A DNA stretch of 64,000 nt from Nannocystales bacterium (GTDB taxonomy: Bacteria > Myxococcota_A > Polyangia > Nannocystales > Nannocystaceae), in contig JBOEGF010000026.1 of NCBI GenBank assembly GCA_050633305.1, forward strand, positions 1 through 64,000, given 5' to 3'. The translations under genes were made by a program, and so were the position numbers. Of the stretch, positions 43,880 to 62,822 are shown one piece after another. The stretch's first letter is position 1. Each line of letters starts with the position of its first letter. The notes beneath the pieces were generated by a model. That model saw only the letters and a list, made by a program, of their open reading frames with translations, was not told where the DNA came from and made no database searches.

Positions 43880-44377
43880 GTGCGGACCTTTCAGCGACGC
43901 TCTCGAGCCATCTGCTTTGTGCTGGACACGGTTGCGTTCTGTGCGGTGTGGGCGCTGGCAGGGAGCTTGATCTTGGAGGTGTTGGCGGTTGTCTCCCCCG
44001 ACAACCCGTGGGGCTCGCTGGCGTTCGCGATCGCCTTCGGGTTTGTAGGAGCGGCGGTGGGACTCGCGCTGGTGGAGGCGAAATGCGGGCACACCCTCGG
44101 TCGGCAGTTCACCGGCCTCGTCGTGGTCGGGGCCGACGCAAACCCGCTCTCGGGCCGTCGGGTGGTCCTGCGTGCGCTCATCAAGTTGGGCGTGCTGGGC
44201 CTGGTGGCTCACGTCGCCGCAGATCTCGATGGTGCCGGCGCCCTGTTCGTGTTGTTCGGCTACGCGCTCGTCAACGCGGCGGTCTGCGCACTTCGCAGTG
44301 ACGGGCGGGGACTCATCGACCTCTTGGCTGGGACCCAGTCGACGGTGCCGCAGGCGGTGGGCGGGGCTCCGCTCTAA
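43880..44377 (+). CDS. RDD family membrane protein
   Basis: RR..A...D, G.TLG....GL.VV, R.L.K, L.DLLAGT. Confidence 0.75.
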   Translation: MRTFQRRSRAICFVLDTVAFCAVWALAGSLILEVLAVVSPDNPWGSLAFAIAFGFVGAAVGLALVEAKCGHTLGRQFTGLVVVGADANPLSGRRVVLRALIKLGVLGLVAHVAADLDGAGALFVLFGYALVNAAVCALRSDGRGLIDLLAGTQSTVPQAVGGAPL

Positions 44378-45297
44378 CCCGCGACGCCCTCGCCAAGCAC
44401 CTCGAGGAACTCGGCGATCGACATCTCTCCGGGTTCCCGGAGTGCGTTGCGGACGGGCTCGTCCAGTTTCTCCCACGCTGACTTGCGCGAGCTCTCTGAG
44501 CTCGTCTCCGTTCGCCAGATCTTCTGGTTTTGGGAGTGCGGCGCAGCCATGGATACGAGCAGCTTGCTGTCCGGGGCGCCGGGGATGACCAAGACGCGTT
44601 GCGACGCGACGTCCCAGAATGCGGACACGGGTCCTTGGCTCTTGGGCAGCCGGGCCTCGACCGCCGCGGTCCAGAACGAGAGCTCCACGTCACTGGTCAC
44701 CGTCGCATCGATCGCCGTGGGGCGTCCGGGTCCGTCTCGCCGGGATTGCTCGCAGGCCCGCTGAAGCACGTTGATCCCGTACGCGCGCTCGGCCGGGTCG
44801 ACGAAGATGCGGGAGAGCACCTGCTCGACACCGACGGTCCGTAGGGCCTCGGCACTGGTGGCCCGTCCTTCCTTGATCGTGCTCCCGCCGGGCTTTTGGA
44901 CTCTGGCGACCGCCGACTTCAGAGAGTCTCGCGAGGTCTCGAGCGCTGTCATCGCCAGCATGGAGAGCTGGGTGAGGGCAGGGCGAAACGCCTCGGCGAG
45001 CAGCGACACCGCGGTCGTTTCGACGACTCCGTACTCGCAGTACACGGCGAGCGGGAAGTTGCGGCCGACTTTGTCGCGGCTGCCGACGATGACGCCGATC
45101 AGCAGGGAGTGCGCGTCTTCGTCTCGGTAGCAGAAACCCAACGGTGTGGAGGAGAGCTTGACCGCGGCGCGGGCGAGCTGATCGTTGGCCATCTGCAGCC
45201 ACCGCTCAAACGAGCGATCGGTCGCGCCGCTCGAACCGATTCGGATGAACTCGGGGTAGGACGGGATCTTGCCAAAAACGCCGATACCGATCGTCAT
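44374..45297 (-). CDS. tagF: Type VI secretion-associated regulator TagF
   Basis: GVFGKIPS..EFI and SRDKVGRNFPL motifs; follows tssK. Confidence 0.88.
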   Translation of the reverse strand: MTIGIGVFGKIPSYPEFIRIGSSGATDRSFERWLQMANDQLARAAVKLSSTPLGFCYRDEDAHSLLIGVIVGSRDKVGRNFPLAVYCEYGVVETTAVSLLAEAFRPALTQLSMLAMTALETSRDSLKSAVARVQKPGGSTIKEGRATSAEALRTVGVEQVLSRIFVDPAERAYGINVLQRACEQSRRDGPGRPTAIDATVTSDVELSFWTAAVEARLPKSQGPVSAFWDVASQRVLVIPGAPDSKLLVSMAAPHSQNQKIWRTETSSESSRKSAWEKLDEPVRNALREPGEMSIAEFLEVLGEGVAG

Positions 45298-45348
45298 GGG
45301 TCACCCCCGAGTTGCACGCGACTGCTGCTCCACTGTTTCATCGGCTTC

Positions 45349-46725
45349 TCATTTCCGGGACACCGTGGGAATGGCAAACAGGCGGGCTTTCGCGCGGCTG
45401 GAGTCGAACGGTGGGGGGAGGAAGATGGCGATCGTCTTCTCGCGGAGAATCTGCTCCCAGTATTCGTGCGAGGTATCGATGACGAAGTAGACCTCGTGCG
45501 GCCGGATCGGGACTTCGGGGGGCGGACGGTGGGACGCCTTGATCGGTGCCCCGGGGATCGCGGAGCGGACGATCTTGGGAATCTGCTTCCACGACGCGAC
45601 CTTGGACAGGTGCGGGACTCGGTTGGCGACCTCCTGCTGGGGCGCGTTGGCATCGAGCGCGAGCACGAACACCGGGCAGTCCAGCAGCCGCTGGTCCTTG
45701 AGCATCGCGATCCACATGCCGTCGCGTCGCGCTTCGAGCGTGACCTCGAGGAAGTTCTCGGCCATCGCAAGCTCGAGCAGGGAGCGAAGCTTGCTGAACA
45801 GCTCGGAGAAGGTCTCGCGGAGGTCGCCGTGGCTGTAGGTCGGAAGCTCCTCGGGGGCGATGTCCGCCGAGAACGTGGTGAGGTGCCCCGCGAGCTGGCT
45901 GAGGGTCTTGTACAGCTCGAAGGGGGTGGACTCGGGAGATTCGGAGAAGTGGCGGACGACAGGGATCTGCGCCGCGATGGCGGCGAGCTGCAGCGAACGG
46001 GTCACGTCCTGTGCGGTGTACTCCACGCGGGACGAGTCGACCTGCCGCAGTGCGCCCGAGATGGCGCGACGCTTGGCGACCATCAGCTTGAGCAGATCCG
46101 AGGTCCATGTCCGAAGCGCCTTCGCGCCCGAGAGCCGCTGGCAAGTCGGAACGAAGTCGGTGGTGAGCTCGAACCCGCCGGAGTCATCGCGCCGAAGCTC
46201 GGCGATCTTGATGACGTGAAAGTGGTCTCGGTTCTCGCTCCCGAACAGGATGACGAGCTTGGGCCGGGCGAACGAGACGCTCACTTCCGTCGCGGCGTCG
46301 ACGAGGTCGAGGACATCCCGGGACCACATCTCAAAACTTCGCGGGGTGGATCCGGCGTCGGCGGGGCCGTAGTTCTCCGAGCCCTCCTGTGCGTGCGGAA
46401 CCCCGGCGAAGACTTCGAGTACGGCGGCGGTTGATTCGAACGCGGAGCCGACCGGTCGAGTGCCGGGCAGTCCCGGATCGCCCTCGTCCAGGTCGACGGC
46501 GATGCCTCCGGGGAGCACCGCTTGGATCGACTTGATGCCGAACTCTCCGGTCTTGAGCGCCACCGGGTCCAGCTCCAGCTTGGTCAGCCCCCACGCGTAC
46601 GCGTTCGGCCACGTCGACCGCGCTTCGACAAGCTCGTGGAAGTAGAGCTCTTGTTGCTGAAAGTGCTGCGGGCAGACGAGAAGCCCCTCGCCCCACACGA
46701 CTCTATGTGCACGCCGTTTGGCCAT
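45349..46725 (-). CDS. tssK: Type VI secretion baseplate connector TssK
   Basis: VVWGEGL...PQHFQQQ, WG...L..D, P.G, F.P, P.Y.H.DL...F, PPPEVP......YF. Confidence 0.93.
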   Translation of the reverse strand: MAKRRAHRVVWGEGLLVCPQHFQQQELYFHELVEARSTWPNAYAWGLTKLELDPVALKTGEFGIKSIQAVLPGGIAVDLDEGDPGLPGTRPVGSAFESTAAVLEVFAGVPHAQEGSENYGPADAGSTPRSFEMWSRDVLDLVDAATEVSVSFARPKLVILFGSENRDHFHVIKIAELRRDDSGGFELTTDFVPTCQRLSGAKALRTWTSDLLKLMVAKRRAISGALRQVDSSRVEYTAQDVTRSLQLAAIAAQIPVVRHFSESPESTPFELYKTLSQLAGHLTTFSADIAPEELPTYSHGDLRETFSELFSKLRSLLELAMAENFLEVTLEARRDGMWIAMLKDQRLLDCPVFVLALDANAPQQEVANRVPHLSKVASWKQIPKIVRSAIPGAPIKASHRPPPEVPIRPHEVYFVIDTSHEYWEQILREKTIAIFLPPPFDSSRAKARLFAIPTVSRK

Positions 46726-46863
46726 CAGTTCTGCTTCTTCTGGGAACGAGCGGCGCGTCTACGCAACGGACTTCCCAGACCCGCCCATCATAGACATCCC
46801 CGGCGCACGGAGAGAAGGTGAAATGACGCCTCCGCGGTCGTTTCGAGTCGCCGCCCCGCTCGG

Positions 46864-49800
46864 CTAGCGCCTGCAGGGGGTGCCGCGGGCGATGATTGAG
46901 CGGGGAGGCCGGACAGCTCCGGTCCTGAAGATCGACATGAACTTGCTGCTGCCCCCAAGCCCGAAGAAGGGCGTGTGCACGCTGCGGGCCTCGAAAATGA
47001 TCTCCAGCGTGCCCAGCTTGGCCCCAGAGAAGTCCCAGACCGCCTTGAACTTGCGGGTGCCGGGCTTTCCGCGGACGACTTTGCCCTGCTCGAGCAGTTG
47101 CATCAGCCCCCACTCGCCCCGGAACTCCAGGCTGTCTTTCGTGCTGAAGCCGAAGACCTCGAGCGTGGCGCCCGGGGACTTCTCTCCGGGCCACTGCATC
47201 TCATGGGGCGTGAGCGGGCCCGTGCGATAGGTGACGGTCTCGCCGTCGATCGTGAAGTTTGCCTTCGTGATCGCGGGTGAGCCCTTGATGGTCACCTCGA
47301 ACTCGACGAGCGGCTCGTCGGACCCCCGCGGGAACATCGACTTGGAGATTTGCTCGCTGGCGTTGAGGAAGTCGACGGTCGTGCCGTGGAAGGTGCTGCT
47401 GGATGTTCCCCGGGGAGCGAGGACGAACTTCTTGCCCCGACGTGGGATCGCAGGCTCGAGAACCTTCTCGTAGAAGTCCCAGAGCGAGCCGGTCTTGGGG
47501 TGGTAGAAATCCGTCAGGTCGTCGAGCGCGACCGGCTCTCCCTTGGGGTTGAACGGGTAGCCTTGGGCGAGCGTGTCGCCGAAGTCGGCGTGGACCTCGC
47601 TGCACCACTTGCCCATGACTCCGGCGGCGACCTTCGTCTTCGCCGTCGAGCCGGAAAGGTCGATCGGTGGCAACAGCAGCCGTTCGAGGGTCGGCGCCCA
47701 GATGTTGCTCGTCTCCGCCGAGAGCAGAGACTTCGTCTTGGACCGCGCCTTCTTGATCTTCTCGGTGGTGTTGTCCTTGGCGTCCGGATCAGCGAGCTCG
47801 GCCTCCATCGCATCCCGAACGTAGCGGAGCTGCTCTTGGTACTCGTCCAGCGGCTTCACGGTTGGGGGAGGGGGCGGCGCGCCATCGACGGCTGGCGGTG
47901 CCGGCTCGGCCACCGCAAAGTCCGTGAGCGGCTTGAAGTACTGGTAGACGGTGTACTCCGAGGCGACCGCGACATCGTTCGGGTCGGCCACGGCTTGTCG
48001 CTTCATGGCGTTGTCCGCAGCGATGTCGATCAGCTGGGTGCTGAGTCCCAGCTTCCCCGCGCCTGAGCTCGTGACGAGCTTCTGGCCCTTCTGCGTGGCG
48101 ACGCGTTTTCCGGCGCTCTGAAGTGCGGTCTTGAGAGGATCGTTTCCCTCTCCCGGGGCACCGCCTGCGGCAAGCTCGGCAGGGTCGAACAAGGTCGTGT
48201 GGTGGGCGACGTACTGGAAGAGCCGGGGGTAGGGGTCTTTGCGGGTGAGATCCCGCAGCAGCTCGAGCGTGTCGGTGTAGCCCTTGCCTCCGGGTGTTTG
48301 CACATTGACGGCCTCGATGAAGGTTCGCCACTCGTGCATGTACAGCCGGTAGTACTCCGACTGGATCGCGATGACCTCCTGCTCCTCGAGCTCTTCGGCG
48401 AGTCCGACGCCCTGTGCCAGGACCCACGTGGGGTCCAAGAACGCTTCGATGCCCGTCTTGAACAGGGGCTGCACCTGGTTCTTGAACCCCTTTCTGGTGA
48501 AGGCCGGGCGAATCTTCTTGCCGTCGTTGGTGACCGCAGGGACCTGAAACATGCTGGTCAGCGTCAGGGCAGGTCCGGTCACGGAGTCGACGATGTGGTT
48601 GGTGATCGCCTCGGTCCGATCGACGCGCGAAAGGACATCTCGTGCGAGCTGAACGACATCCTCATCGCGAGGGAAGGCAAGGTCGGGTCGCGAAGCGAGC
48701 AAGCGCAGGTAGGTCGAAGCGACCTTGTCGATGCTTTCCCGACTGGTGGGCTCGCCCGAGAGCAGGATGGGCGCCTCCCAAAGGTTGCCCAGGTGGTCTG
48801 TCAGCCACGCGGCTTCCTCTTCGTCGAGTCCCGGTTCGGAGGCCTCTGGAGGGCCCGAGGTGAGCAGGTACATCCGCAGCCGCGCAAAGTTGTCCTCGTA
48901 CTCCTCGAGCGAGGGGGTCTTGTCGTTCATCTTGTAGCGTTGGACGAACCGATCCAACGCCTCGAGTTCGCGTCCCGCGACGGGGATGTGGAGTTCCCGT
49001 CGGACGGTGTCGATGAAGACGTCCCGGAGGCGGGGATACATTCGTCCGCCCTGGTACATGCCCATCCGCATCGACCACGGCGGACCATCCTCGTCGTAGG
49101 TCTGGAGCATGTCGACCATCCGCCGGAGCGGCTCGATGCGCTCCATGGGGATGACGTCGCCTGAATCCTCTGCGAGGTGTTGCTCGACGTACGCGAGGGA
49201 AGTTCCGCCCTGCCCGAGGACGTCCCGGTTGTGGCGGTAGGACATCAGCGGCAGGACGACCGTGGCGATCGCGGCCACGAGGGCGACGGCTCCGGCAATG
49301 GTTCCGCCGATGCGGAGCTTGCGGGTGCGGCGTCGGTTATGCCGAACCAGGGCGTAGTCGGGGAAGATGACGCGCCGGAAGATCTCGCCGAGGAAGTAGC
49401 TCTTCGCATCGACGGGCGCCACGGTTGCACCGCCGATGGTGGGGCGCAGACCGAACGCTTCGGAGATGGCGCTCATGATGCGCCCCAGCGGTCGACCCTC
49501 TTGGGTACCACTGGTCATGTAGACGCCGCGGAGGATCGGGGTCTCGTGATAGATGTTCGGCTCGGTCATCTCGTGCATGAACCGAGCGATCGGCTCACGC
49601 AGCGAGGCGAAGTATTGAGGAAGCTCGTGCAGCCGCTCGCGACGGGCCATGCTTCGCTCCTCGGCCAGACGACGGAGCGTGCGCTTTTCGAGCAACGAGC
49701 TGAGCTCGTCGAGATGCTCGCTGCACTGATCCGCGATCGAGAGCTGGTCGGACACCTTGAGGGTGAAGCCCCACATCTGGTGCCGCTCCACCTCACTCAG

Positions 49801-50583
49801 GTCGGAGAACATCTCCACGAAGCCCGGCAAGAGGTCGCATTTGGTGAACATCATGTAGACCGGGACGACAACGCCCAGCCGGTCTTGAAGCTCATCGATG
49901 CGGGCCCGAATCTCGCGCGCCAAGGTGGCGATCTCTTCGGGGTGCGCTTCGGCGATGTCGGCCACGCTGACCGCCGCGATCACGCCGTTGATCGGACGCC
50001 GCGTCCGGTACTTTCGAAGCAGATCCAAGAACGCGAACCACTCGTCGCGGTCGGTGTTCTCGGTCGTGTAACGCCCTGCGGTGTCCAGGATGACGGCTTC
50101 GGACGTCATCCACCACTCGCAGTTCCGGGTACCGCCCACGCCTTGAACGCTCACCCCGCCCCGGTTGCTGGAGAAGGGGAACTTCAGGCCCGAGTTGCGC
50201 AGCGCGGTGCTCTTGCCGACGCCGGGTGGCCCAACGATGACGTACCAGGGCAGGGAGTACAGCGCGCTGGAGGCTCCGCGAGCGCCCAAGCGAGACGACT
50301 TCAGCGCACCGATCGCCCGCGCGAACTCTTCTTGCATCGAGCGGATGTCGGCCTCGAGGTCGGGGCGGGCCGAGCGTGCCTGGTCTTCGGCCTGGGCTCG
50401 CAGTGCGCGCTCGATCTCCTTGCTGGCTTTTCGACTTCGCGCAAAACGAATGCCCAGCACCGTCGCGATGACCAGCGTGGTGATCGCCGTGACGATGCCC
50501 GCGTAGTAGTAGGGCAGCTCGAAGTACGCGACACCGGCCCAGGTCGCCGCGAGGAAGAGCGTGATGAAGACGCCTTTGAGCAT
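46864..50583 (-). CDS. tssM: Type VI secretion membrane subunit TssM (IcmF)
   Basis: LY.LPWY..VGPPGVGKST (Walker A), GTRNCEWW, DTAGRY, PINGV, TKCDLL.GF, RGVY.TSGTQEG, MG.YQG, YPF, G.WGL..L. Confidence 0.95.
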   Translation of the reverse strand: MLKGVFITLFLAATWAGVAYFELPYYYAGIVTAITTLVIATVLGIRFARSRKASKEIERALRAQAEDQARSARPDLEADIRSMQEEFARAIGALKSSRLGARGASSALYSLPWYVIVGPPGVGKSTALRNSGLKFPFSSNRGGVSVQGVGGTRNCEWWMTSEAVILDTAGRYTTENTDRDEWFAFLDLLRKYRTRRPINGVIAAVSVADIAEAHPEEIATLAREIRARIDELQDRLGVVVPVYMMFTKCDLLPGFVEMFSDLSEVERHQMWGFTLKVSDQLSIADQCSEHLDELSSLLEKRTLRRLAEERSMARRERLHELPQYFASLREPIARFMHEMTEPNIYHETPILRGVYMTSGTQEGRPLGRIMSAISEAFGLRPTIGGATVAPVDAKSYFLGEIFRRVIFPDYALVRHNRRRTRKLRIGGTIAGAVALVAAIATVVLPLMSYRHNRDVLGQGGTSLAYVEQHLAEDSGDVIPMERIEPLRRMVDMLQTYDEDGPPWSMRMGMYQGGRMYPRLRDVFIDTVRRELHIPVAGRELEALDRFVQRYKMNDKTPSLEEYEDNFARLRMYLLTSGPPEASEPGLDEEEAAWLTDHLGNLWEAPILLSGEPTSRESIDKVASTYLRLLASRPDLAFPRDEDVVQLARDVLSRVDRTEAITNHIVDSVTGPALTLTSMFQVPAVTNDGKKIRPAFTRKGFKNQVQPLFKTGIEAFLDPTWVLAQGVGLAEELEEQEVIAIQSEYYRLYMHEWRTFIEAVNVQTPGGKGYTDTLELLRDLTRKDPYPRLFQYVAHHTTLFDPAELAAGGAPGEGNDPLKTALQSAGKRVATQKGQKLVTSSGAGKLGLSTQLIDIAADNAMKRQAVADPNDVAVASEYTVYQYFKPLTDFAVAEPAPPAVDGAPPPPPTVKPLDEYQEQLRYVRDAMEAELADPDAKDNTTEKIKKARSKTKSLLSAETSNIWAPTLERLLLPPIDLSGSTAKTKVAAGVMGKWCSEVHADFGDTLAQGYPFNPKGEPVALDDLTDFYHPKTGSLWDFYEKVLEPAIPRRGKKFVLAPRGTSSSTFHGTTVDFLNASEQISKSMFPRGSDEPLVEFEVTIKGSPAITKANFTIDGETVTYRTGPLTPHEMQWPGEKSPGATLEVFGFSTKDSLEFRGEWGLMQLLEQGKVVRGKPGTRKFKAVWDFSGAKLGTLEIIFEARSVHTPFFGLGGSSKFMSIFRTGAVRPPRSIIARGTPCRR

Positions 50584-51308
50584 TAGGGGCTGCCTTCCTT
50601 GCCGTTTTTCGAAGCGGTGGCCGCGGCCGGGTCACCGGCGGAGCGATCCAAGATGCCGCGTCCGCGAGCATCGATGTCGTCGGTCATCCCGTTGAGGGAG
50701 ATCCGCAGTGCGATGATGAAACAAACGGAGAACAGCAGCGCGAACAGCCCGATCCACAGGACGAGAAAGTCCATGCTTCTGGACTGCATGCTCTCCCGGC
50801 GTGGCAGGTGGCTGCGCGAGACCGGCTCGGCGTTGAGGAGCCGACCCAGCGCATCTCGGACCCGACGCCGGATCAGGTCGAGCTCGAGCTCGCCGCCTCG
50901 AACCGCGTATCGGCCTTCGAATCCGAAGCTCAGCACCATGTGGTAGACCGACAGGACTTCGACGCGGCTTGGGTCGTGCAGGATCCGGTTGAGCCGCTCG
51001 AAGAAGCCGTCTCCAGCCACGTTCTCCCCGAAGTAGCGCAGCTGCAGTGGGCGTTGGGCCCAGTGGTCTCGCAGGGGGCCCGGCTTCATCTGCGCGAGCT
51101 CGTCGGCGTGGGCGACGATGGCGTACATGATGTCGGCCAAGTCGCTCTCGGCCATCCGGGTGCTCTTGCCGCGCTCGATCGCCTCGTCGACGTAGGCTTG
51201 GAGCCGCTGATAGACGTGTTCGGGTCGTGCACCCGCACCTTGACCGACGCTCCTCAATTGAATGAGGGCGTTGAAACAGTCCTTGGTGACCTCATTGATA
51301 CGGTTCAC
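50583..51308 (-). CDS. tssL: Type VI secretion membrane subunit TssL (DotU), no OmpA domain
   Basis: YA..A.ADE, W...PLQL.YFGEN.AGDGFF..L, Y...L..GFEGRY, C-terminal TM. Stop overlaps the tssM start (TAATG). Start set at GTG 51308. Confidence 0.93.
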   Translation of the reverse strand: MNRINEVTKDCFNALIQLRSVGQGAGARPEHVYQRLQAYVDEAIERGKSTRMAESDLADIMYAIVAHADELAQMKPGPLRDHWAQRPLQLRYFGENVAGDGFFERLNRILHDPSRVEVLSVYHMVLSFGFEGRYAVRGGELELDLIRRRVRDALGRLLNAEPVSRSHLPRRESMQSRSMDFLVLWIGLFALLFSVCFIIALRISLNGMTDDIDARGRGILDRSAGDPAAATASKNGKEGSP

Positions 51309-51501
51309 TGCCGGTTCCCGAGTGTCCCACACCCATCCTCGCCCCGAAACCCGGCGCATTGCGCGGGTTGGGCCCGAGACCCCTGTACAGCGGTGCACGC
51401 ACGCGCTCGTTGCGGGGTTTCCCTCCGCTGAAACGAGCTGGGTTGGGGTTCCACGACACGAGCACGACGTGCCCGTTTAGGGCACTCTTCTGGTCGATCT
51501 G

Positions 51502-53292
51502 ATGCGGGTTCACGTGTTCATCGACAGCGCCGGCGAATCGACGCGTTCGCCGGAGTTCGCGAAGCCCGAGGTCACGCTGGGGCGTCGGCCATCGAACGAC
51601 GTCGTACTGGCCGACGCAGCGGCATCCGGGGGACATGCTCGGGTGTTCGTGACCGGCAGCGCCTTGACGATTCTCGACCTCGACTCGACGAACGGGACCT
51701 TCGTCAATCAGCGACGGCTTCGCGGCCCGCACGTGCTTCAGCCCGACGACGTGGTCGAGATCGGGGACACGAAACTTCGTTTCTCTTTGTCGGGTGTCGA
51801 GTCGACCTCGATCGAGGCGGTCCCCCAAGCCCCCGGGGCCCCAGCCGCTCCGCCGGCTCCGCCGGGCCCCAACGCGGAAGGGGATTGGCCCGCGCCGCCT
51901 CCGATGATGGACGACCTCGCGCCCGGTGGCGCGCGCCCCGAGCCGGTCGCCGTGACCGCGGCCAAGTCTGAGACTCGCGCGGCGGTGTTTCCCCGCCTGG
52001 CCCAGGCGCCCATGCCCAGTCGGCCCCAGCCCGCGGGCCCCCCACCGCAACCTCCGTCGCGACCGCCGAGCGCCCCCATGCCTGCGGCGGTTGCATCGTC
52101 GGCTGGGGGGTTCGAGTTTCAAGACGCCGAGCCGGACGTGTTGATCAGCCGGGTGTTCGAAGCGGTGTGGCGCCGCGTGTCCTCGGCCGTGCTCGCGGGG
52201 GAATCCGGGGTTCGGGCCAAGGTGAGCGGGCTGCTCTCCGCCGCCCTCAAAGCTGCGTCTTCGGTGCGGAGTCTGGGCGACGTTCAGGGGCTCCACGGCC
52301 GTATGTTGGCCGAGATGGTCGGGGATGGACCGATCTCCGGCCTGCTCGAGGGGCAGCCCGAGGAAGTTGTGTTCATCGCTTCAACGCGCGCCCGCGTCAA
52401 TCGCGGTGGGCACGTCTCTGAAGGTCAGAGCCCCTTCTCGTGCGCTCAAGGTCTCAATGCCTGGGTGCGTCGGGCGACGGGCGTCACGCTGTCCTCGTCC
52501 ACGGTCGCTGCGCGCGGCGTGTTCGGCCAATACTCGGTGCACGCGGCGTACGAGCCCAGCGGAAGCATCGTTTCGTTGCGCAAGCGGGTGCCCGCCGGCT
52601 CCGCAACCACCGAAGCCCTGGCTCGGGTTGGTGTGGCCTCGCCGGGGATGCTGGGGCTGCTTTCGGCCAGTGTTGCTTCTCGGATGAGCGTGCTCATCTG
52701 CGCGGGTCCGGGTGCACGCTCAACGTGGCTGATGGCGTCGCTCCTCGGTGGGGGTGCTCCGCACGAACTTCAGGTCGCGTTGCTCAGCCCTGGCTCGGAC
52801 GTGACTCCCTTCCCCGCGACCTCTGTGGTCATGACACGGGTGGGACGCCCCGGGCACTCCCTGGAGGCTGCGCTCAGCCTCGGCCCCGATCGTCTCGCCG
52901 TCGAGGATGTCGAGTCCGGTGAAGCGGGCGCGGTCATGAGCATGGTGTCTCGCTCTTGCAGCCAGCTCATCGGGGTTCGAGCTTCCAACAGCGGTGCCGG
53001 GCTGCATCAGCTCCGCGGGATGCTGGCCGAGACCGCCGACCCCGCCAACGTCGCGAGCCTGACGATGCGCTCGGTGTCCCTTGTGGTCACCCTTCAGCAC
53101 TTCTCCGACAGCGTCGACCGCATCACCCAGATCTCCGAGCCGACGCTCGACGACTCAGGACGCCTCGGCGTCCAGGATGTGTTCACGTTGGTGCCCGGCA
53201 GCCGCACCTGGCAGTTCACTGGAGCTCGGCCCCGGTGTTACGAAGACATCGTCCAGCGCGGCTTTCCCCTCGACCCCTCCATCTTCGCCTAA
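51502..53292 (+). CDS. FHA domain fused to a degenerate TadA/CpaF (VirB11-like) ATPase
   Basis: FHA motifs GR, S..HA, DL.STNGT.VN; Pro-rich linker; CpaF-like EMVGDGPI..LL, SLRK, VLIC.G.G, AL.L.PDRL.V, RI.QISE, QDVF, FTG.RP. Walker A Lys is absent. Confidence 0.8.
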   Translation: MRVHVFIDSAGESTRSPEFAKPEVTLGRRPSNDVVLADAAASGGHARVFVTGSALTILDLDSTNGTFVNQRRLRGPHVLQPDDVVEIGDTKLRFSLSGVESTSIEAVPQAPGAPAAPPAPPGPNAEGDWPAPPPMMDDLAPGGARPEPVAVTAAKSETRAAVFPRLAQAPMPSRPQPAGPPPQPPSRPPSAPMPAAVASSAGGFEFQDAEPDVLISRVFEAVWRRVSSAVLAGESGVRAKVSGLLSAALKAASSVRSLGDVQGLHGRMLAEMVGDGPISGLLEGQPEEVVFIASTRARVNRGGHVSEGQSPFSCAQGLNAWVRRATGVTLSSSTVAARGVFGQYSVHAAYEPSGSIVSLRKRVPAGSATTEALARVGVASPGMLGLLSASVASRMSVLICAGPGARSTWLMASLLGGGAPHELQVALLSPGSDVTPFPATSVVMTRVGRPGHSLEAALSLGPDRLAVEDVESGEAGAVMSMVSRSCSQLIGVRASNSGAGLHQLRGMLAETADPANVASLTMRSVSLVVTLQHFSDSVDRITQISEPTLDDSGRLGVQDVFTLVPGSRTWQFTGARPRCYEDIVQRGFPLDPSIFA

Positions 53293-53309
53293 CCCCCGCT
53301 TGAACCCTC

Positions 53310-54107
53310 ATGGGCGCACGCTCTCATCACCTCGTTAGCCTCGTCTCCTTGGGATTGCTCGTCGCCACGAGCAGCGGATGCAAGGAGGAGGAACCAACCT
53401 GCAAGCCCGACAGCGTCGAGTGGGGGATCTCGCTCGTCATCGGGGCCAGTGACCGCGTCAACCCCAACGACGAAGGCGAGTCGCTGCCGACGATGGTCCG
53501 CGTCTATCAGCTTCGAGGGGAACTCGCGGCGGAAGACGTGGACTCGTCTCAGCTTTGGGCCTCGGAGAAGGCCGAAGAACTCGGAGAAGACTTCCTCTCC
53601 GTCGACGAGCTGATCCTCGCTCCGGAGGCCGACGACAACCGGACCATCGCGCTCAAGGAAGACGCGACCCACTTGATGGCAGCGGGCTTGTTTCGAGAGA
53701 GTGTCGGCACCAGCTGGTACACGCTCTACGAAATCCCGCGGCGACACCCGGAGAACGTCTGCGCTCGGGATCCGGTGGGCAAGAACATCCCCGACCCGTG
53801 TTTTTTTGTGTTCCTCGATCGCAGCGAGGTGAGCGGCGGGGAGATGCCTCCGTCAGGATTCCGGGCGGATGGCGCCTCTTGTGCTCCGCTGGGTCCGCCC
53901 CCGAAGCCCGAGCCCAAGCGGCGCAAGCTCCGGGATCGGAAGAAGCTCGAGGAGGACCTCGAAGATCCGTTGCGGACCAAGGAGATCGACGAGAAGACCC
54001 CGAAGAAGCCGGGGGTCCCCAGTGGCCCACAGACGCCATCGCGTCCCAGTACACCGTCCAAGGGCGACCTCCCCAGCGCCCCGAGCCGTCCAGGCATGAA
54101 TCCGTGA
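53310..54107 (+). CDS. tssJ: Type VI secretion lipoprotein TssJ
   Basis: Lipobox SSGC, VNPNDEGESLPTMVRVYQL, E..L.P, AGLFRE....W; Cys-containing and Pro/Lys-rich tail. Confidence 0.88.
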   Translation: MGARSHHLVSLVSLGLLVATSSGCKEEEPTCKPDSVEWGISLVIGASDRVNPNDEGESLPTMVRVYQLRGELAAEDVDSSQLWASEKAEELGEDFLSVDELILAPEADDNRTIALKEDATHLMAAGLFRESVGTSWYTLYEIPRRHPENVCARDPVGKNIPDPCFFVFLDRSEVSGGEMPPSGFRADGASCAPLGPPPKPEPKRRKLRDRKKLEEDLEDPLRTKEIDEKTPKKPGVPSGPQTPSRPSTPSKGDLPSAPSRPGMNP

Positions 54108-54120
54108 ACCGGAGGCGAGT

Positions 54121-55446
54121 GTGAGGCACGTTCGCATCACGGTCCGGTCAACCTCCACCGGCGACACCACCGACTACCAGTTCTCGAACTCCCCGGTCCG
54201 GATCGGTCGGAACCGACTCAACGACTTGGCGCTGCCGTACCCGTTCGTTTCGGGCTGGCACGCGGTCATCAGGTTTGACGACGCCAAGGCGCGTTTCTTC
54301 GACTTGGGGTCGACCAACGGCTCTCTGTACGGGGGGCAACGGGTGGAGGTGGGGCAGTCGGTTCCCATCGAGCCTCAGGCCACGGTGGTCCTCGGCGACC
54401 TCGAGTTGCTGATGTCGCACGGCGCGACCACGGTCATCCCAACGCACGCACCCTCGGGCGGGACGCAGCCCAGTGGTGTCCCTGTGCAAGCGCCGGGCAC
54501 TTGGATGCAGGCTCCGGACACCTCCGAGTCGGCGGCCGCGGGCGAGATCGATCCCAACGCGACGGCCGAGCCGCAGGACAGGCCCGCGCTCAACGCCCAT
54601 CAGACCGCACACGTTCCGATGCGGCAGATCCATGGCGCCCTGGCGGCCCTGCGTCCGCACCATGAATCTGTTCGAAACGCGCGGGTGCTGTTTGAGCAAG
54701 AGCTCCGCAGTCAACTTGCTGCGCTGCCCAACTATGCACGGGAGCAAGCGGAGGAGTTCATCCGACGCGAGTTCGCTCGCTCCTCGCCATCCGATGGGTT
54801 CGAGTCCGCGTCCTCGCCGTTTCGGGGCGGCTACGGGTCGGTGACCGAGTTCGCCGAGGAGATTCTCCCCGAGGTTCCGCCCCCCACCACCGAGCGGGAG
54901 ATGCAGCAGTTCCTGCATCGGGTACGAGACGTCCTCGAAACCTGCGCAAAGGGCTTGGTCGAGCTCCAACGCGGGCAGGAACAGTTCGGTCGCGAGATGG
55001 GGGTCAAGGCGATCAAGGAGTTCACGCCGCTGCATGTCGCCCAGACTTCAGCCGAGATGCTCGGGCACCTGCTCGACTTCCGGCACTCCGGACCGGAGCG
55101 CGTCGCTCAGCTCTCGGGACTCTTCGCTGACACCATGATCCACCAAGTTGCCCTGCTCAACGGGGTTGCCGAGGGGGGACGCGCGCTGCTGGCCCGCCTC
55201 GACCCCGATGAGATCGAACGGACGGTTCGAGGGTGGGGCAACCAGACGTCGAAGAAGTGGGAGCAGTTTGTGACCCTGTATCGAAGCGTGATGGCCGACG
55301 ACCGAGTGATGACCGAGATGCTCTTCGGTCCCGAGTTTGCCAAGGCCTATGCCGAGGTCGGGGGCGAGCAGTCCGCACCCGCTCAGTCCGCCTCCGAGCC
55401 CCACGCTCCCCAGCCCAATGACCCACCACAAGAACCCCATGCCTGA
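54121..55446 (+). CDS. tagH: Type VI secretion-associated FHA protein TagH/Fha
   Basis: FHA (IGR..., VSGWHA, DLGSTNG); C-terminal D...HQVALL.G...G.RALL.RLDP..IE...W..F...Y...FG.EF..AY. Confidence 0.88.
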   Translation: MRHVRITVRSTSTGDTTDYQFSNSPVRIGRNRLNDLALPYPFVSGWHAVIRFDDAKARFFDLGSTNGSLYGGQRVEVGQSVPIEPQATVVLGDLELLMSHGATTVIPTHAPSGGTQPSGVPVQAPGTWMQAPDTSESAAAGEIDPNATAEPQDRPALNAHQTAHVPMRQIHGALAALRPHHESVRNARVLFEQELRSQLAALPNYAREQAEEFIRREFARSSPSDGFESASSPFRGGYGSVTEFAEEILPEVPPPTTEREMQQFLHRVRDVLETCAKGLVELQRGQEQFGREMGVKAIKEFTPLHVAQTSAEMLGHLLDFRHSGPERVAQLSGLFADTMIHQVALLNGVAEGGRALLARLDPDEIERTVRGWGNQTSKKWEQFVTLYRSVMADDRVMTEMLFGPEFAKAYAEVGGEQSAPAQSASEPHAPQPNDPPQEPHA

Positions 55447-56410
55447 GTCGGCTTCCTTCGTTCGTCGTGTCTCGTTGGTGTTGACCGCAGCGCTGTTGAT
55501 CGGCGCGGCGGCGTCGGCTGGCTGCAAGCCCAAGCGGACGCGGGTGCCAGCGCTATGCTCCTTTGACGGCCTCAGCGAAGAAGAACGCGAGGGACAAGCG
55601 CTCTCCCCGATCACGTGGCTGACCCTCACTTCGCCCTCCGTCGATCGGCAAGCGATGCGTCGAGCAGGCCCGATGATGAACGCGTGCGGCCAAGTCATCC
55701 CACCTGCGTTCTCCGAGAGTTTCGAGTGCCCGGGCTTCGAGCCCACCGGGGAGCTTGTCTCCACCGACGTCGTCGAGGAGACCGACCTCATCATGGACTC
55801 CGCTGGGGAGGACCGTACGGTCCTGTGGGCGGCGACCGATGAGCTGACCTCGGGGGAGGTCGAAGGGGCGGCCGCCCTCGCGCTTTGGACGGACGAAGCC
55901 GTCGAGGTCCACGCCGTGGGCATGTTGCGTGGCTATCGGCATGGTGCCCGAGTTCGTCTTCACTCGATCGGGGCGACTCCGGTGCTGGTATTGCAGAGTG
56001 ACCGCTGCGATGCCGACGGAGCGTGTGTCGGCGTCTCGCAAGTGGTCCCGATCATCAACAAGCGCCTCGCCGAACTCCCGGTGTGGGAGTCTGAGCGCGG
56101 ATGCATCGGGAGAGCCCAGTTCATCCTCGAGAAGCGTGAGACTCGGGACCTCGCGGACGGGACGACGCGGAAGTTTGTGCTCACGCGCAGCCTCGAGTTG
56201 GACGAAGAGGGGGTCTTCGTGACCGACCTCGTTCGCATGGACGACTTCCCCACGGGTGAGCCTGATGCCGAGCCCACGCCCTACCGCAAGGTGTCCGCAC
56301 GCCGTCCGCTGCTGCTCGACGGCGATCGCTTCCTTCTCGAGGATGAAGACCTGTGGGAGCGAGTGCTCGTCGACCACGGACAAGTCGTCGGGACGTCGAA
56401 TCCCGGCTGA
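55439..56410 (+). CDS. Hypothetical lipoprotein, last gene of the tssJ-tagH run
   Basis: ATG overlaps the tagH end; lipobox SAGC; several Cys; beta-rich appearance. Confidence 0.75.
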   Translation: MPESASFVRRVSLVLTAALLIGAAASAGCKPKRTRVPALCSFDGLSEEEREGQALSPITWLTLTSPSVDRQAMRRAGPMMNACGQVIPPAFSESFECPGFEPTGELVSTDVVEETDLIMDSAGEDRTVLWAATDELTSGEVEGAAALALWTDEAVEVHAVGMLRGYRHGARVRLHSIGATPVLVLQSDRCDADGACVGVSQVVPIINKRLAELPVWESERGCIGRAQFILEKRETRDLADGTTRKFVLTRSLELDEEGVFVTDLVRMDDFPTGEPDAEPTPYRKVSARRPLLLDGDRFLLEDEDLWERVLVDHGQVVGTSNPG

Positions 56411-56457: not shown

Positions 56458-58668
<2,211 letters not shown>

Positions 58669-58938
58669 CAGGTTGTGGCCCCCCGAAGGTATGGGGAACG
58701 CTTGCGCGTGATGCGCGATGCTGCGATTGCCGCAGAAGCTCCCCAGCTCCCTCCCCCATCTGTGTAGAAGGATGTGGGACAAGCCCGAGGGTTGCAAACT
58801 CGCTGCAAGGATCGAGTCGACACGTGGGCTTGGGTACGGTTCAAGGAGCCAATTCGATCGCCCCGCGCGGTTCCAGCGCCCACTGCGCGAACTCGTAGGG
58901 CCACGCGGGGGGCTGCGGACACTGTTCCTATGCCCCGG

Positions 58939-59550
58939 TCAGTTGCCGGTCGGCCGTTCGACTTTTTCGTTGGTCCGACGCTTGTTGGTCCGCTTCACTT
59001 CCAGGAAGACGGTCTTGGGTCGCTTCTTCTTTTTGCGCTCGAGACGGTAGACCGCGTTCGCATCCGAGAGGGCCTGCAGCTTGCCCGGCTTGAGCTCATG
59101 TCGCTTGATCACACATGAGCGGTACACGCTCGACTTCTCGTAGTCGTCGCGTACGGGCAGGTCGACCAGGCGATAGCGGCCGTCCTCCGTCTGCACAAAG
59201 CCGAAGGCGCACTCGGCATCCCGGCATGAGCGGTCGAAGGCCACCCAAAGCCGACGTGCGCCATTGCGTAGGTCTTCTGCGACGATCAGCCCCACGAGGT
59301 TTCGACCGAGAAGAACCCGCAATCGGCCCTTTCGAGAGTTGTCCTCGATGGTTCGGTCGACGCGCGTCTGGCTGAACTCGTCGCGCTCGTAGACCGGGAT
59401 CGTTCGATTGCTGACGTAGACGCCGAGGTCTTGGAACTTGTCCCGTGCTTTGGCGTCGCGAAGTGCGGCGTCGCCCAGGACGTAGCGAGCGGTGCAGCCC
59501 GGTAGAAGGCTGCACACCGAAACGAACAGGACCGCGACGAGGGCTCTCAC
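58939..59550 (-). CDS. Hypothetical lipoprotein
   Basis: GTG 59550, lipobox LPGC, basic C-terminus. Confidence 0.7.
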   Translation of the reverse strand: MRALVAVLFVSVCSLLPGCTARYVLGDAALRDAKARDKFQDLGVYVSNRTIPVYERDEFSQTRVDRTIEDNSRKGRLRVLLGRNLVGLIVAEDLRNGARRLWVAFDRSCRDAECAFGFVQTEDGRYRLVDLPVRDDYEKSSVYRSCVIKRHELKPGKLQALSDANAVYRLERKKKKRPKTVFLEVKRTNKRRTNEKVERPTGN

Positions 59551-59666
59551 CGAAGAGCGAGGGTTGCGGAAAACCCCGTGCCGGTCAACTCCCCGCAACG
59601 AGGGCTGCCACAGGCCTGCTAAGATTCCGCCGCCGCCGTGCCCGCTCGCACCGCCCCCCAACGCCC

Positions 59667-62600
59667 ATGATCTGCGTCGTGATCGCATCGCTCGAGAACG
59701 GCCGTGGCCGGGTCGAACGAGCCGAAGGCGTCATCGTGGTCGGACGCGATGCCCGCTCCACCGTCGTCCTCGACGAGCGGGGCGTTTCGGGATCCCACTG
59801 CCGCTTCAGCCCAATGCCGGAGTTGCCCGGCGCCTACCTGCTCGAGGACCTCGCGAGCACCTACGGCACGTTCGTCAACAGCGCGCGCGTGGGTCGGCCC
59901 GTGGTGGTCTCGGGGCGTGATGTCGTCTCGGTTGGGGGCAGCATGTTGATGCTGGCGCCCCCGGGCCAAGAGCAAGCCGCGATCGCCAGGCTCTCTGCGA
60001 TGGCATCTCCCGCGCCGGAGCCGGCGGCGCCAACTCCCATGGCGCCTCCGGCCGCCGCAGGACTCGGTGCGTTCGACCCCGCGGCACCGTGGATGCAGCA
60101 GTTCGAGCACTTCGACGGGTTGGCGCGCAGCTGGCAAGACTCCGGGCGTCCCAAGGGGAAGCTCCTGCGCGGACCGATCGTTCGCATCGCCGAGCAGTGG
60201 TTGGCGGCCGGCATCAATCAGAGCCCCACCCCTGGCGCATTGCACCGAGACTTCGTCGAGCAGAGCCGCAACGGCCGGCTATTTCGGCTGCAGATGCTGG
60301 TGCTGCTCGTGGTGCTGGGTGTGATCGTGGTGGGAGGCGGAACTGCGGCGTTCATCTTCCGAGCCGACCTCCTGCAGCTGTGGAATGGGAGCACGGTCGC
60401 CACCGACGTGGAACCGCCGCCGGAGTTTGCGGAACGCTCGGAGGCGAAGCCGGTCGAGTTGGCCGCACTCGTGCGCGCGGTGCAAGCCGAACCCAAGTCG
60501 ACCCGTCGGCTTCTGCTCGAGAGTGCGGTGGCCGAGGTCGCTCGGAGCCAGGGCCGTCCGCTGTTGTCGGACGTCGTCTGGGACCTTCAACGGTCTGCCC
60601 ACGACACGCTCGCCCAGGAGCGGGCTACGGTCTTGCGCGGACACGTTGCCCCGATCACGGACGTGGAGTTTTCTGTGGACGGGGTCCGGGTCGCCAGCGC
60701 AAGTGAAGACGGCAGCGCCCGGCTCTGGGATTTTTCGGCACCCTCGCCCGGCCGAGTCTCCACGCTGCGTGGGCACATCGGCGCGGTGAACATGTTGGCG
60801 TTTTCTCCCGATGGCACGCGTCTGGTCACCGGAGGGGACGGGGGAAAGGTCTGGCTGTGGGACGTGGGCGCCGATGAGCCGGCGGCATCGGGCGTGTTGT
60901 TGCGACACCACAAGGCCCGTGTCCTCTCGCTCGCGTGGCACTCAGACGGAAAACGCTTGGCCACCGCAGATGAGACCGGTGTGCTGGCGCTGTGGGACGT
61001 GGACGAGCCGCGAGGTCCCGAGTCGACACGGACGGCCCACGAGGGCGCAATCACCAACCTGGTGTTTGACACGTCTGACCCTCCGGCGCTCTGGTCCGCC
61101 GGCGAGGACCGGGTCGCACGTCAGTGGGCCCTTCGGGAGGACGGCTCCCTCGCCCGGGTACGTACCCTGGACGACCATCTGGGCGGCGTCACCTCTCTCG
61201 CGGTCTCGGACGACGGCCGCTGGGCTGCGACCGCGACCTCGGCGGGAGAGGTCTTCCTGTGGCCGCGCGGGACCCGTCGCAAGCGAGGCCGAGGCAAGAA
61301 GAAAGCCGGTCCCCTCCCGGCGCTGCCCTTGGTGGGGCACAAGGGGCTGGTTGCCTCGGTCGCCTTCACTCCGGATGGGCACTGGTTGATCACCGCGGGC
61401 AAGGCCGGACTGCGGATGTGGGATCTGCGGGCCAAGGATCCTGGCATCGCGAGCGTCGTGCTCTCCGGCCACTCCGGAGACGTCACCCAGATGGTGCTCG
61501 CGGCGGGAAACCGGGCGGTGACCGGGGCCACCGACAACACACTGAGAGTCTGGGACCTGGAGAAGTCTCAGACCGTGATCTCATCCGCAGTGCTCGACGG
61601 CCATGTCGCCAGCGTTCAAGCGGTGGCCGTCTCCAAGGATGGACTTCGAGTCGCCTCCGGCGGTGAGGACAACACGGTGAGGGTTTGGGACGCGTTCGGG
61701 GCCTCGGCGGGTCGCGGTGGCGCCATCTTGCGGGTCGGCCCGACCGCGGTGCAGGACTTCGGGGTCTCCAATTCGGACACCGTGCTCGGGCTCTCAACCG
61801 CCGAGGTCAAAGTCTGGACGCTTGCCGATCGCAGTCGGTGGCGGATGCCTACGATCCTCGAGGGGGCATCGGGTCTGCTCAAGGCCGGCGCGATCGATCG
61901 GGACGGGAAGTTCGCGGCGGCCGGATCGGAGACGGGCCCGATCTACGTGTGGTCGCTGGCCAACACAGCGCGCGCGCCGACGGTTCTCGAGGGACACACC
62001 GGGCCGGTCAACGCGCTGTCCTATCTTCCGGACGGTCGCCTCGTTTCGATCAGCAGCGATCGCACCGTTCGGGTGTGGGACGCGCGCGCCCCCGAGGCCG
62101 CGACCCCGTGGACCGGTCATTCCGATGAGGTCGTTGCGCTCGCCGTGTCTCCGGCTGGTGATGTTGTGTTTACCGGTGGCCTCGACGGCATGCTGCTTCG
62201 GTGGAACGTCGCGGATGGCACGTCCACGCCCATGCCAGGTCACGAAGGCGAGGTCCTGCAGATTCGGGTCTCGCCCGATGGCAGCCGCGTCGCCTCCGGC
62301 AGTGCGGACTTCAAGGCTCATGTCTGGGACGCCAGCACGGGGAAGCTCCTGCACGAGATGCGCGGGCACAAGGAGAAGGTCTTCTCGGTCGCGTTCGGTC
62401 GCAGCAAGAAGCTCGCGACCGGGGGGGCCGACGGCAGAGTCCTGCTGTGGGACCTCACCTCAGAGCAGCCCCACGAGTCGCCGCGACCCCTCGTTGGCCA
62501 CGAGCAGTCCGTCACGGCGCTCGTCTTCAGTCGTGACCTCGAGGTCTTGGCCAGCGGAAGCAACGACAAAACCGTGCGGCTGTGGCGTTTGGACACCGGG

Positions 62601-62822
62601 CGTGAGCTTGTCCTTCCGGGGCACGACCGCATCGTCGCCGGGTTGAAGATCACCCAAGACGGCGCGCACCTGATCTCAGGCGGGTTCGACGGCACTCTGA
62701 GGGTTTGGCCGCTCGCCCATACCAGTTTCATCCGGACCCTTTGCGACGTTGTTGGCCAGTCGCTGCCCGAAGGTGAGGCCGCCGCCGCGTTGGGCGTCCC
62801 AGTCCAAGACCCCTGCTTGTAG
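59667..62822 (+). CDS. FHA-TM-WD40 repeat protein
   Basis: FHA (VGR, VSGSHC, DLASTYGTFVN); TM helix; about 14 GH...WD repeats. Start set at ATG 59667. Confidence 0.9.
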   Translation: MICVVIASLENGRGRVERAEGVIVVGRDARSTVVLDERGVSGSHCRFSPMPELPGAYLLEDLASTYGTFVNSARVGRPVVVSGRDVVSVGGSMLMLAPPGQEQAAIARLSAMASPAPEPAAPTPMAPPAAAGLGAFDPAAPWMQQFEHFDGLARSWQDSGRPKGKLLRGPIVRIAEQWLAAGINQSPTPGALHRDFVEQSRNGRLFRLQMLVLLVVLGVIVVGGGTAAFIFRADLLQLWNGSTVATDVEPPPEFAERSEAKPVELAALVRAVQAEPKSTRRLLLESAVAEVARSQGRPLLSDVVWDLQRSAHDTLAQERATVLRGHVAPITDVEFSVDGVRVASASEDGSARLWDFSAPSPGRVSTLRGHIGAVNMLAFSPDGTRLVTGGDGGKVWLWDVGADEPAASGVLLRHHKARVLSLAWHSDGKRLATADETGVLALWDVDEPRGPESTRTAHEGAITNLVFDTSDPPALWSAGEDRVARQWALREDGSLARVRTLDDHLGGVTSLAVSDDGRWAATATSAGEVFLWPRGTRRKRGRGKKKAGPLPALPLVGHKGLVASVAFTPDGHWLITAGKAGLRMWDLRAKDPGIASVVLSGHSGDVTQMVLAAGNRAVTGATDNTLRVWDLEKSQTVISSAVLDGHVASVQAVAVSKDGLRVASGGEDNTVRVWDAFGASAGRGGAILRVGPTAVQDFGVSNSDTVLGLSTAEVKVWTLADRSRWRMPTILEGASGLLKAGAIDRDGKFAAAGSETGPIYVWSLANTARAPTVLEGHTGPVNALSYLPDGRLVSISSDRTVRVWDARAPEAATPWTGHSDEVVALAVSPAGDVVFTGGLDGMLLRWNVADGTSTPMPGHEGEVLQIRVSPDGSRVASGSADFKAHVWDASTGKLLHEMRGHKEKVFSVAFGRSKKLATGGADGRVLLWDLTSEQPHESPRPLVGHEQSVTALVFSRDLEVLASGSNDKTVRLWRLDTGRELVLPGHDRIVAGLKITQDGAHLISGGFDGTLRVWPLAHTSFIRTLCDVVGQSLPEGEAAAALGVPVQDPCL

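Follow-up and report, generated by a model that had tools for sequence, protein, structure and literature searches.

Organization of the T6SS locus

The window analysed here comprises bases 1–64000 of contig C26 (JBOEGF010000026.1, 84,599 bases in total) of a Nannocystales bacterium, and it carries a type VI secretion system (T6SS) locus of eight genes in two divergent runs, tssL-tssM-tssK-tagF and [FHA-CpaF-like]-tssJ-tagH-lipoprotein, an assignment in which the coordinates and the NCBIfam and Pfam matches agree with the initial annotation of the sequence (Table 1). TagF, TssK, TssM, TssL and TssJ all score above their NCBIfam cut-offs, and the membrane complex formed by TssJ, TssL and TssM is complete in the window. 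This arrangement had been described as a membrane-complex-only locus without a tail, and genome-wide searches indeed place no tail gene within the 64 kb. The tail lies beyond the edge: a sheath-protein search locates TssC at C26:79275, 15 kb outside the window, and tssE, tssF, tssG, tssB, tssC, tssA and vgrG occupy contig positions 75088–84387, 11–20 kb beyond the edge, with about 19 kb between them and the lipoprotein gene. The membrane-complex-only appearance is therefore an artefact of the window edge, and gene content indicates that a single T6SS cluster of 40 kb, tail included, almost certainly spans both parts, the locus being its membrane-complex half. The option of a tail half encoded elsewhere, also raised in the initial annotation, has thus held, with the tail on the same contig and in the same cluster; a complete tail module elsewhere, which it had linked to an ordinary split T6SS, is nearly what was found, except that the module sits on this contig. 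The genes taken as bounds, an RDD gene on the left and a kinase gene on the right, are convergent as described, but the cluster runs on past the kinase. The genes between the two halves (kinase, lipoprotein Y, FHA-WD40 and FHA-LysM-M74) are matched, domain layout included, by genes of the second T6SS region of the genome, and are therefore likely part of the cluster and not its boundary.

Table 1. Features of the T6SS cluster on contig C26; window and contig positions coincide up to 64000
Feature	Position	Strand	Basis or remark
tagF, T6SS post-translational regulator	44374..45297	-	TIGR03373 above cut-off; PF09867
tssK, baseplate-membrane connector	45349..46725	-	TIGR03353 E 7.5e-97
tssM	46864..50583	-	TIGR03348 E 2.9e-205
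tssL	50583..about 51308	-	TIGR03349 above cut-off; inferred start, GTG at 51308
FHA, proline-rich linker, CpaF/TadA-fold pseudo-ATPase, 596 aa	51502..53292	+	FHA PF00498; model; motifs
Motif remnants of the pseudo-ATPase	Walker A 52702; Asp-box 52783; Walker B 52885; His-box 52972		
tssJ, lipoprotein	53310..54107	+	TIGR03352 above cut-off; 17 bases past pseudo-ATPase stop
tagH/fha	54121..55446	+	PF00498 and PF20232 (T6SS_FHA_C); TIGR03354 112.8, cut-off 120.25
Predicted T6SS-associated lipoprotein, no known family	about 55439..56410	+	Start overlaps tagH stop by 8 bases
Membrane Ser/Thr kinase	56458..58797	-	Pkinase domain
Lipoprotein Y, conserved, predicted, no known family	58939..59688	-	Paralogues at contig 68018-68875 and in second T6SS region
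FHA-like N-terminus, membrane segment, WD40 repeats	59445..62822	+	WD40 protein equally placed in second T6SS region
FHA-LysM-peptidase M74	62844..64000, gene extends to contig 64682	-	Candidate cell-wall-opening enzyme
Rhs	69732-72851	+	
Protein X, predicted Hcp fold	74445-75077	+	
tssE	75088-75522	+	Pfam above cut-off
tssF	75580-77370	+	Pfam above cut-off
tssG	77334-78419	+	Pfam above cut-off
tssB	78498-79064	+	Contractile sheath
tssC	79071-80561	+	Contractile sheath
tssA, assembly factor	80564-81967	+	Pfam above cut-off
vgrG	82048-84387	+	Phage_GPD, Phage_base_V, Gp5_trimer_C; TIGR03361 E 2e-36, below its cut-off

ClpV/TssH is absent from this cluster, the only ClpV of the genome being in the other one, and no ClpV follows vgrG in the relatives G002 and G004, where the contig continues (G denotes a genome, C a contig and L a fetched locus; G000 is the genome of the window, all others are relatives). 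G000 measures 11.0 Mb and is 92% complete, a figure that all genome-wide absences carry. Four matches to the PAAR family PF05488 occur elsewhere in the genome and none within the cluster. Outside both clusters there are also eight further VgrG-like matches, on contigs C65, C18, C46, C4, C60, C48 and C17, and four of these contigs carry PAAR matches as well. In the available text on Myxococcus xanthus, the canonical T6SS consists of 13 core genes in one cluster (PMC5801462); the cluster described here resembles it in uniting TssA, B, C, E, F, G, J, K, L, M, VgrG and TagF, and differs in having neither a Pfam or NCBIfam Hcp, with protein X in the tube slot, nor a ClpV, and in carrying, in addition, an FHA-CpaF pseudo-ATPase and two lipoproteins that fall into no known family. 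It is a family-specific T6SS variant, set off from the canonical 13-core-gene cluster by the lack of ClpV.

Two T6SS types and their layout in relatives

The subtype found in the window is referred to as type 1, and the second, canonical cluster of the genome, at C18:768412-790018, as type 2; the latter has Hcp and ClpV, and its core span is without vgrG. Local searches give genome totals of two each for TssJ, K, M, E, F, G, B and C, two TssA, two full-length TssL plus one fragment, and one each for Hcp and ClpV, so that the count of tail modules against TssJLM copies proposed in the initial annotation matches two T6SS clusters. The isolated tssL fragment, G000:C63:45931-46320, matches the type-2 TssL over its first 79 residues, at 72% identity. 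A protein of 533 aa encoded at the edge of the second T6SS region, G000:C18:809501-811102 (L010:5502-7103), contains segments that weakly resemble TssB and TssC, and TssC-like open reading frames (ORFs) come after tssM in some relatives.

Family-wide counts of tssJ and CpaF-like genes refer to 58 genomes of the Nannocystaceae, each at least 80% complete, which as kin are not independent and show conservation, not repeated origin; the type-1 carriers with titles shown are metagenome-assembled. All 12 type-1 genomes among the 58 also carry the canonical cluster, with two tssJ genes and exactly one Pfam Hcp and one ClpV, both above cut-off and both lying in the type-2 cluster; type 1 was never seen without type 2 among these 12 better-assembled genomes.

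The layout of the window is retained in three genomes of the same genus where it can be traced (G002, G004 and G006). In G005 and in other genera, the type-1 system is compact and forms one cluster, with the order pseudo-ATPase, divergent gene, tssE-F-G-K-L-M-tagF-B-C-A-vgrG in G015, G070, G074 and G077. In seven genomes of two other genera (G015, G070, G073, G074, G075 and G077; G059), membrane and tail genes are contiguous or nearly so, and the pseudo-ATPase is divergent from X'-tssE-F-G (X' being the counterpart of X described below), the same geometry as pseudo-ATPase/hcp-tssE-F-G in the canonical cluster. Because type 1 is compact in G005 and other genera, a rearrangement within one cluster, at the level of the genus, likely accounts for the gap that separates the halves here. 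About 2.7 kb within this gap, G000:C26:65287-68018 (L005:3288-6019), is absent from G002, G004 and G006, and holds a cysteine-rich ORF and a 401-aa ORF without a Pfam match, which we take to be transposase-like.

Protein X, a candidate tube subunit

Type-1 clusters are without a Pfam-detectable Hcp. The gene directly before tssE, which is the hcp slot of type 2, encodes protein X, of 210 aa, in the genus of the window (six genomes), and protein X' or an X'-like protein, of roughly 196 aa, elsewhere (10 genomes); an X or X'-like gene thus precedes tssE in 16 of the 16 type-1 loci examined. X has no match in Pfam, NCBIfam or PHROGs, the Hcp families PF05638 and TIGR03344 included, nor in a viral fold library at E ≤ 0.001, and a search of the Atlas with X gives scores of 0.84–0.85 only; an X' profile finds chance matches only among Protein Data Bank (PDB) sequences. 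The structural model of X, built from 15 sequences (pLDDT 77.8, pTM 0.80), has Hcp structures as its top Foldseek matches (best E 8e-4), and when compared with 48,161 representative chains all eight with Z ≥ 8 are Hcp and the first 11 rows are Hcp or Hcp-fusion, with a best Z of 10.4 and a root-mean-square deviation of 2.6 Å over 122 residues. Pyocin and extracellular contractile injection system (eCIS) tubes come next in the same search, at Z about 6; no VgrG-titled chain is among the 50 best rows, which does not exclude a VgrG relationship. X therefore resembles Hcp/TssD (4hkh, 7fcf, 6a2v and 5urw of M. xanthus; Z 8.8–10.4 over about 122 residues) in fold and in its slot before tssE, and differs from it in an identity of 5–14%, in the absence of a profile match, in length (210 vs about 160 residues) and in a sequence that changes between close relatives much faster than its neighbours'. 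X is predicted to have the Hcp fold, and is classed by fold and gene position, not as a member of the Pfam Hcp family; the prediction covers X, and X' was compared by sequence alone.

The 13 loci that a pattern scan found in the genome collection all bear titles of Nannocystaceae, Myxococcota or Deltaproteobacteria bins, and no description of a divergent myxobacterial Hcp was found in the literature searched, which consisted mostly of non-subscription papers. Stand-alone extra copies of X' exist in three genomes; contrary to expectation, these orphan copies are not beside vgrG (six orphan loci fetched). One of them, in L087:4665-6608 (G074:C231), comes directly after a gene of the thiol-activated-cytolysin family, on the same strand.

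The model and the gene position indicate that X is probably the main tube subunit. Several observations weigh against this assignment. Profile-profile comparison yields no match of X to the family's own Hcp, and X' gives none either; the Foldseek TM-scores of X are 0.3–0.4 by query length, and its last 45 residues are of low confidence and mostly unmatched. Between X and X' the alignment spans most of either protein but is weak (E 0.003 and 0.017, probability <10%), and the Atlas look-alikes of X' are phage proteins, a minority of them labelled tail-tip L or Gp84_N. X is also far more variable than its neighbours: between G001 and the genome of the window, identity is 92% in the pseudo-ATPase domain, 57% in TssE and 35% in X. 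In the corresponding locus, L044 (G001:C392), X, tssE and tssF diverge from the window genome much more than the pseudo-ATPase operon, a sequence pattern which suggests that the X/tube-baseplate segment is exchanged between close relatives.

The strongest rival explanation is a dependent T6SS, in which X would be a specialised Hcp-fold ring, either a cargo carrier or the first ring on VgrG, and the tube and ClpV would be borrowed from the second cluster. The constant company of a canonical cluster with one Hcp and one ClpV, the hypervariability of X with its apparently swapped alleles, the tail-tip or hub labels among the look-alikes of X', and the PDB titles 9vnd and 9qpe, which by title list complexes of Hcp with partner or effector proteins, all agree with such a ring. 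Nevertheless, the gene in the exact position of hcp is X or X' in every locus examined, the model of X is closest to full T6SS Hcp chains among all representatives compared, and the 12 genomes in which both types co-occur are kin and not 12 independent events. The stand-alone copies of X' also speak against a specialised ring, since hcp genes often have such extra copies. A borrowed tube is accordingly considered unlikely, though it is the alternative that deserves most attention, and X as tube subunit is retained.

The FHA-CpaF pseudo-ATPase upstream of tssJ

The leader protein of the tssJ run has an FHA domain and weak TadA/TrbB matches. The predicted model of its C-terminal 376 residues (pLDDT 94.4), for which the alignment included intact CpaF-like rows, has CpaF/TadA as its best folds (Foldseek E 7e-25, TM 0.64–0.73; top matches 8rjf, 9e24 and 8rkd), and the protein is predicted to keep the two-domain fold of CpaF. 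The catalytic motifs are degenerate: in the protein of the window, a serine replaces the Walker A lysine, the Asp box is without its glutamate, aspartate is the last residue of Walker B and an arginine stands in the His box. The Walker A lysine, the Asp-box glutamate and the His-box histidine are lost in 28 of 28 T6SS-linked copies, and the Walker B glutamate remains in four of them, the protein of the window not included. Twenty-six of the 28 retain the FHA motif; of the other two, one is truncated at a contig end and one is a split gene. Motifs and predicted fold thus bear out the identity given in the initial annotation, a degenerate CpaF homologue. The ratio of nonsynonymous to synonymous substitution rates (dN/dS) of the dead domain is 0.05–0.14 against the four closest relatives, similar to that of tssK and tssF (values against distant relatives were discarded, as dS saturates), and the pseudo-ATPase is therefore under purifying selection and not decaying.

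A CpaF-like gene lies directly upstream of 52 of the 70 tssJ genes in the 58 family genomes, linkage being defined as at most 1 kb upstream on the same strand. No such gene is found at 11 of 11 T6SS loci outside the family (11–20 kb fetched each; five reached a contig edge), which were inspected directly since a phylum-wide pseudo-ATPase profile search did not separate dead from intact copies. The comparison of neighbourhoods proposed in the initial annotation has therefore revealed a conserved linkage within the family, and its remark on how unusual it is for a Tad-ATPase homologue to lead a tssJ operon stands: no CpaF-like T6SS accessory was found described in the same literature, and the terms CpaF, TadA and Myxo have zero occurrences in the available part of a 2026 review of T6SS accessory factors. 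A branch with SH-aLRT 96 separates the 28 linked copies from 19 rows selected for their intact motifs and from six unlinked dead copies, in a tree that left out 15 representative rows near the linked copies and most of the weaker degenerate matches.

Conservation and motif loss make the pseudo-ATPase very probably a non-catalytic T6SS accessory; that it acts through FHA-phosphothreonine recruitment is only somewhat favoured. There are points against both. The protein is dispensable in parts of the family, as 18 of the 70 tssJ genes have no clear copy and, among 12 of these that were re-examined, only two had an eroded or fragmented one; the tree is a quick search with long branches and without a one-clade test; the cluster already has TagH as an FHA reader, and a second one is not obviously needed; and partner binding and activity stay predicted for the pseudo-ATPase as for X. 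The gene is in pieces in L112:3079-4754 (G055:C10) and L065:9280-11768 (G004:C12), by true decay or assembly error. A third dead FHA-CpaF protein of the window genome, unlinked to T6SS, is encoded at G000:C4:485397-487172 (L095:7398-9173); six unlinked copies examined are well conserved, motif-dead and near a CcmH-like gene, and form their own branch.

The pseudo-ATPase could alternatively be a passenger, an ancestral neighbour of tssJ with an unrelated role in FHA signalling and no part in T6SS assembly. Its loss or erosion in several T6SS loci of the family would fit, and so would the related CpaF-like genes unlinked to tssJ that occur in 55 of the 58 genomes, eight of them without tssJ, from which it follows that such proteins have T6SS-independent roles. 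The gene is, however, found in both T6SS types and stays directly upstream of tssJ where rearrangements have moved other neighbours, its stop overlaps the start of the longest ORF downstream in G006, G059 and G060, and the linked copies form a branch apart from the unlinked ones; a mere passenger is thus improbable. It is less probable still that the homologue runs a nucleotide cycle of a non-canonical kind and performs mechanical work for the T6SS, for example in place of the missing ClpV. The predicted model retains the whole CpaF fold, the Walker A site is a glycine-containing loop, often with an arginine, and type 1 has acidic residues at Walker B, but three catalytic residues are gone from every linked copy and the fourth from most, and the pseudo-ATPase is equally present in clusters that bear ClpV.

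In the genome, none of an intact CpaF, a TadB/TadC platform, RcpC/CpaB and TadE-type pilins was found; for RcpC and TadE, Caulobacter served as positive control. PF00437 matches seven genes, three of them high-scoring and full-length and four lower-scoring; the two that were read have intact motifs, and the intact ATPases are presumably PilB/GspE and PilT. The best ATPase-region matches of an intact CpaF-like query are the three degenerate copies, T2SSF domains are confined to two genes, next to those intact ATPases, and three untyped secretins are present. According to the available text on Myxococcus, KilF is an FHA-fused Tad ATPase (PMC8460266), which explains the resemblance of the homologue and not a coupling; the pseudo-ATPase shares the FHA plus CpaF-fold architecture of KilF and CpaF/TadA as far as that source describes it, and differs in its lost catalytic motifs, in the absence of detected Tad partner genes and in being linked to tssJ and not to tad genes. 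A TssJLM channel without a tube, coupled to a Tad- or Kil-type contact machine, which was one of two readings in the initial annotation and would fit the likeness to KilF, is extremely improbable given the baseplate, sheath and spike genes of the same cluster, the lost catalytic residues and the missing Tad partners, and Tad coupling of the T6SS is not supported.

Accessory genes of the cluster

The longest ORF of tssL starts at 51398, and the alignment with the paralogue starts only at residue 31. A kinase gene is likewise found in the second T6SS region and close to the type-1 clusters of other genera, and the membrane kinase is likely, by sequence, the PpkA-like kinase of the present cluster. 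In the available parts of two sources, a threonine-phosphorylation pathway runs through PpkA/TagE, Fha/TagH and TagF (PMC3953482, PMC13584744); the present cluster resembles it in its kinase, TagH and TagF and in the FHA motif kept by the pseudo-ATPase, and differs from the pathway so described in three further FHA-type proteins, one of them fused to a dead CpaF. The lipoprotein at 55439-56410 has a cysteine, Cys29, invariant in 12 of 12 homologues, adjoins T6SS genes in relatives, and has no Pfam match and no PDB sequence match in profile searches; profile searches with lipoprotein Y likewise found no Pfam or PDB family. Both are candidate new T6SS accessory lipoproteins, and both stay beside tagH/tssJ in several T6SS loci of the family even after loss of the pseudo-ATPase. 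The FHA-membrane-LysM-M74 peptidase occurs in both T6SS regions, the other copy being G000:C18:805457-807307, and is possibly a cell-wall opener recruited by phosphorylation. Acinetobacter TagX is, in the available text, a precedent for a cluster-encoded cell-wall endopeptidase (PMC13584744), though of the VanY type and not FHA-LysM-M74.

Proposed mechanism and significance

The gene content, order and conservation of the cluster, the loss of catalytic motifs and the purifying selection on the pseudo-ATPase form the firm basis of the proposal. In T6SSs, TssJLM spans the envelope, TssK docks TssEFG-VgrG, TssA guides the growth of tube and sheath, and contraction fires the tube. These roles of envelope complex, baseplate, TssA and firing are also given in the available text of PMC5801462 and PMC13584744. 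In the type-1 system, the divergent Hcp-fold protein X would build the tube, and the type-2 ClpV would likely recycle the sheaths of both systems, unless type-1 sheaths stay unrecycled. As far as the consulted part of PMC3667781 goes, T6SS clusters without ClpV can function, and the ClpV-less T6SS of Campylobacter jejuni is a precedent for such a cluster, although here a ClpV exists in the second one. In Agrobacterium, a kinase phosphorylates TssL, and Fha binds the phosphothreonine and secretion is activated, according to the available text of PMC3953482; similarly, the cluster kinase may phosphorylate a component of the machine or TagH, and the FHA domain of the pseudo-ATPase may bind that phosphothreonine. 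The CpaF body, probably still a ring, would cluster or position the cytoplasmic face of TssL/TssM with TagH and TagF, the dead ring presenting several FHA domains to phosphorylated parts of the machine. The pseudo-ATPase is likely co-transcribed with tssJ and tagH, and, TssJ being periplasmic, their link would run through expression and not through direct contact; the FHA-LysM-M74 protein may open the cell wall, as TagX does. In summary, one 40-kb T6SS with X as its tube, a shared ClpV and a pseudo-ATPase that acts as a phosphothreonine-reading scaffold is a fairly probable overall account.

Two features are candidates for novelty, the conserved FHA-CpaF pseudo-ATPase accessory and the tube candidate invisible to annotation. 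Since X escapes every sequence library tried, profile-based surveys would call such T6SSs incomplete or tube-less; a fast-changing, swappable tube would be a natural test of the matching between tube, sheath and cargo, and of the sharing of one ClpV by two T6SSs. A dead FHA-fused secretion ATPase kept before tssJ across the family is a candidate new T6SS accessory factor, and would be a case in which the motor of one nanomachine is recycled as the regulator of another. As a tentative and rather doubtful extension, the Nannocystaceae may hold a second, ClpV-less T6SS subtype with an exchangeable, annotation-invisible Hcp-fold tube, and in most of their T6SSs the inactive motor of a Tad/Kil killing pilus, since lost, may have been taken over as an FHA-ring hub, where a phosphorylation signal at the site of contact would nucleate T6SS assembly; such a hub would descend functionally from the contact-triggered assembly module of Kil.

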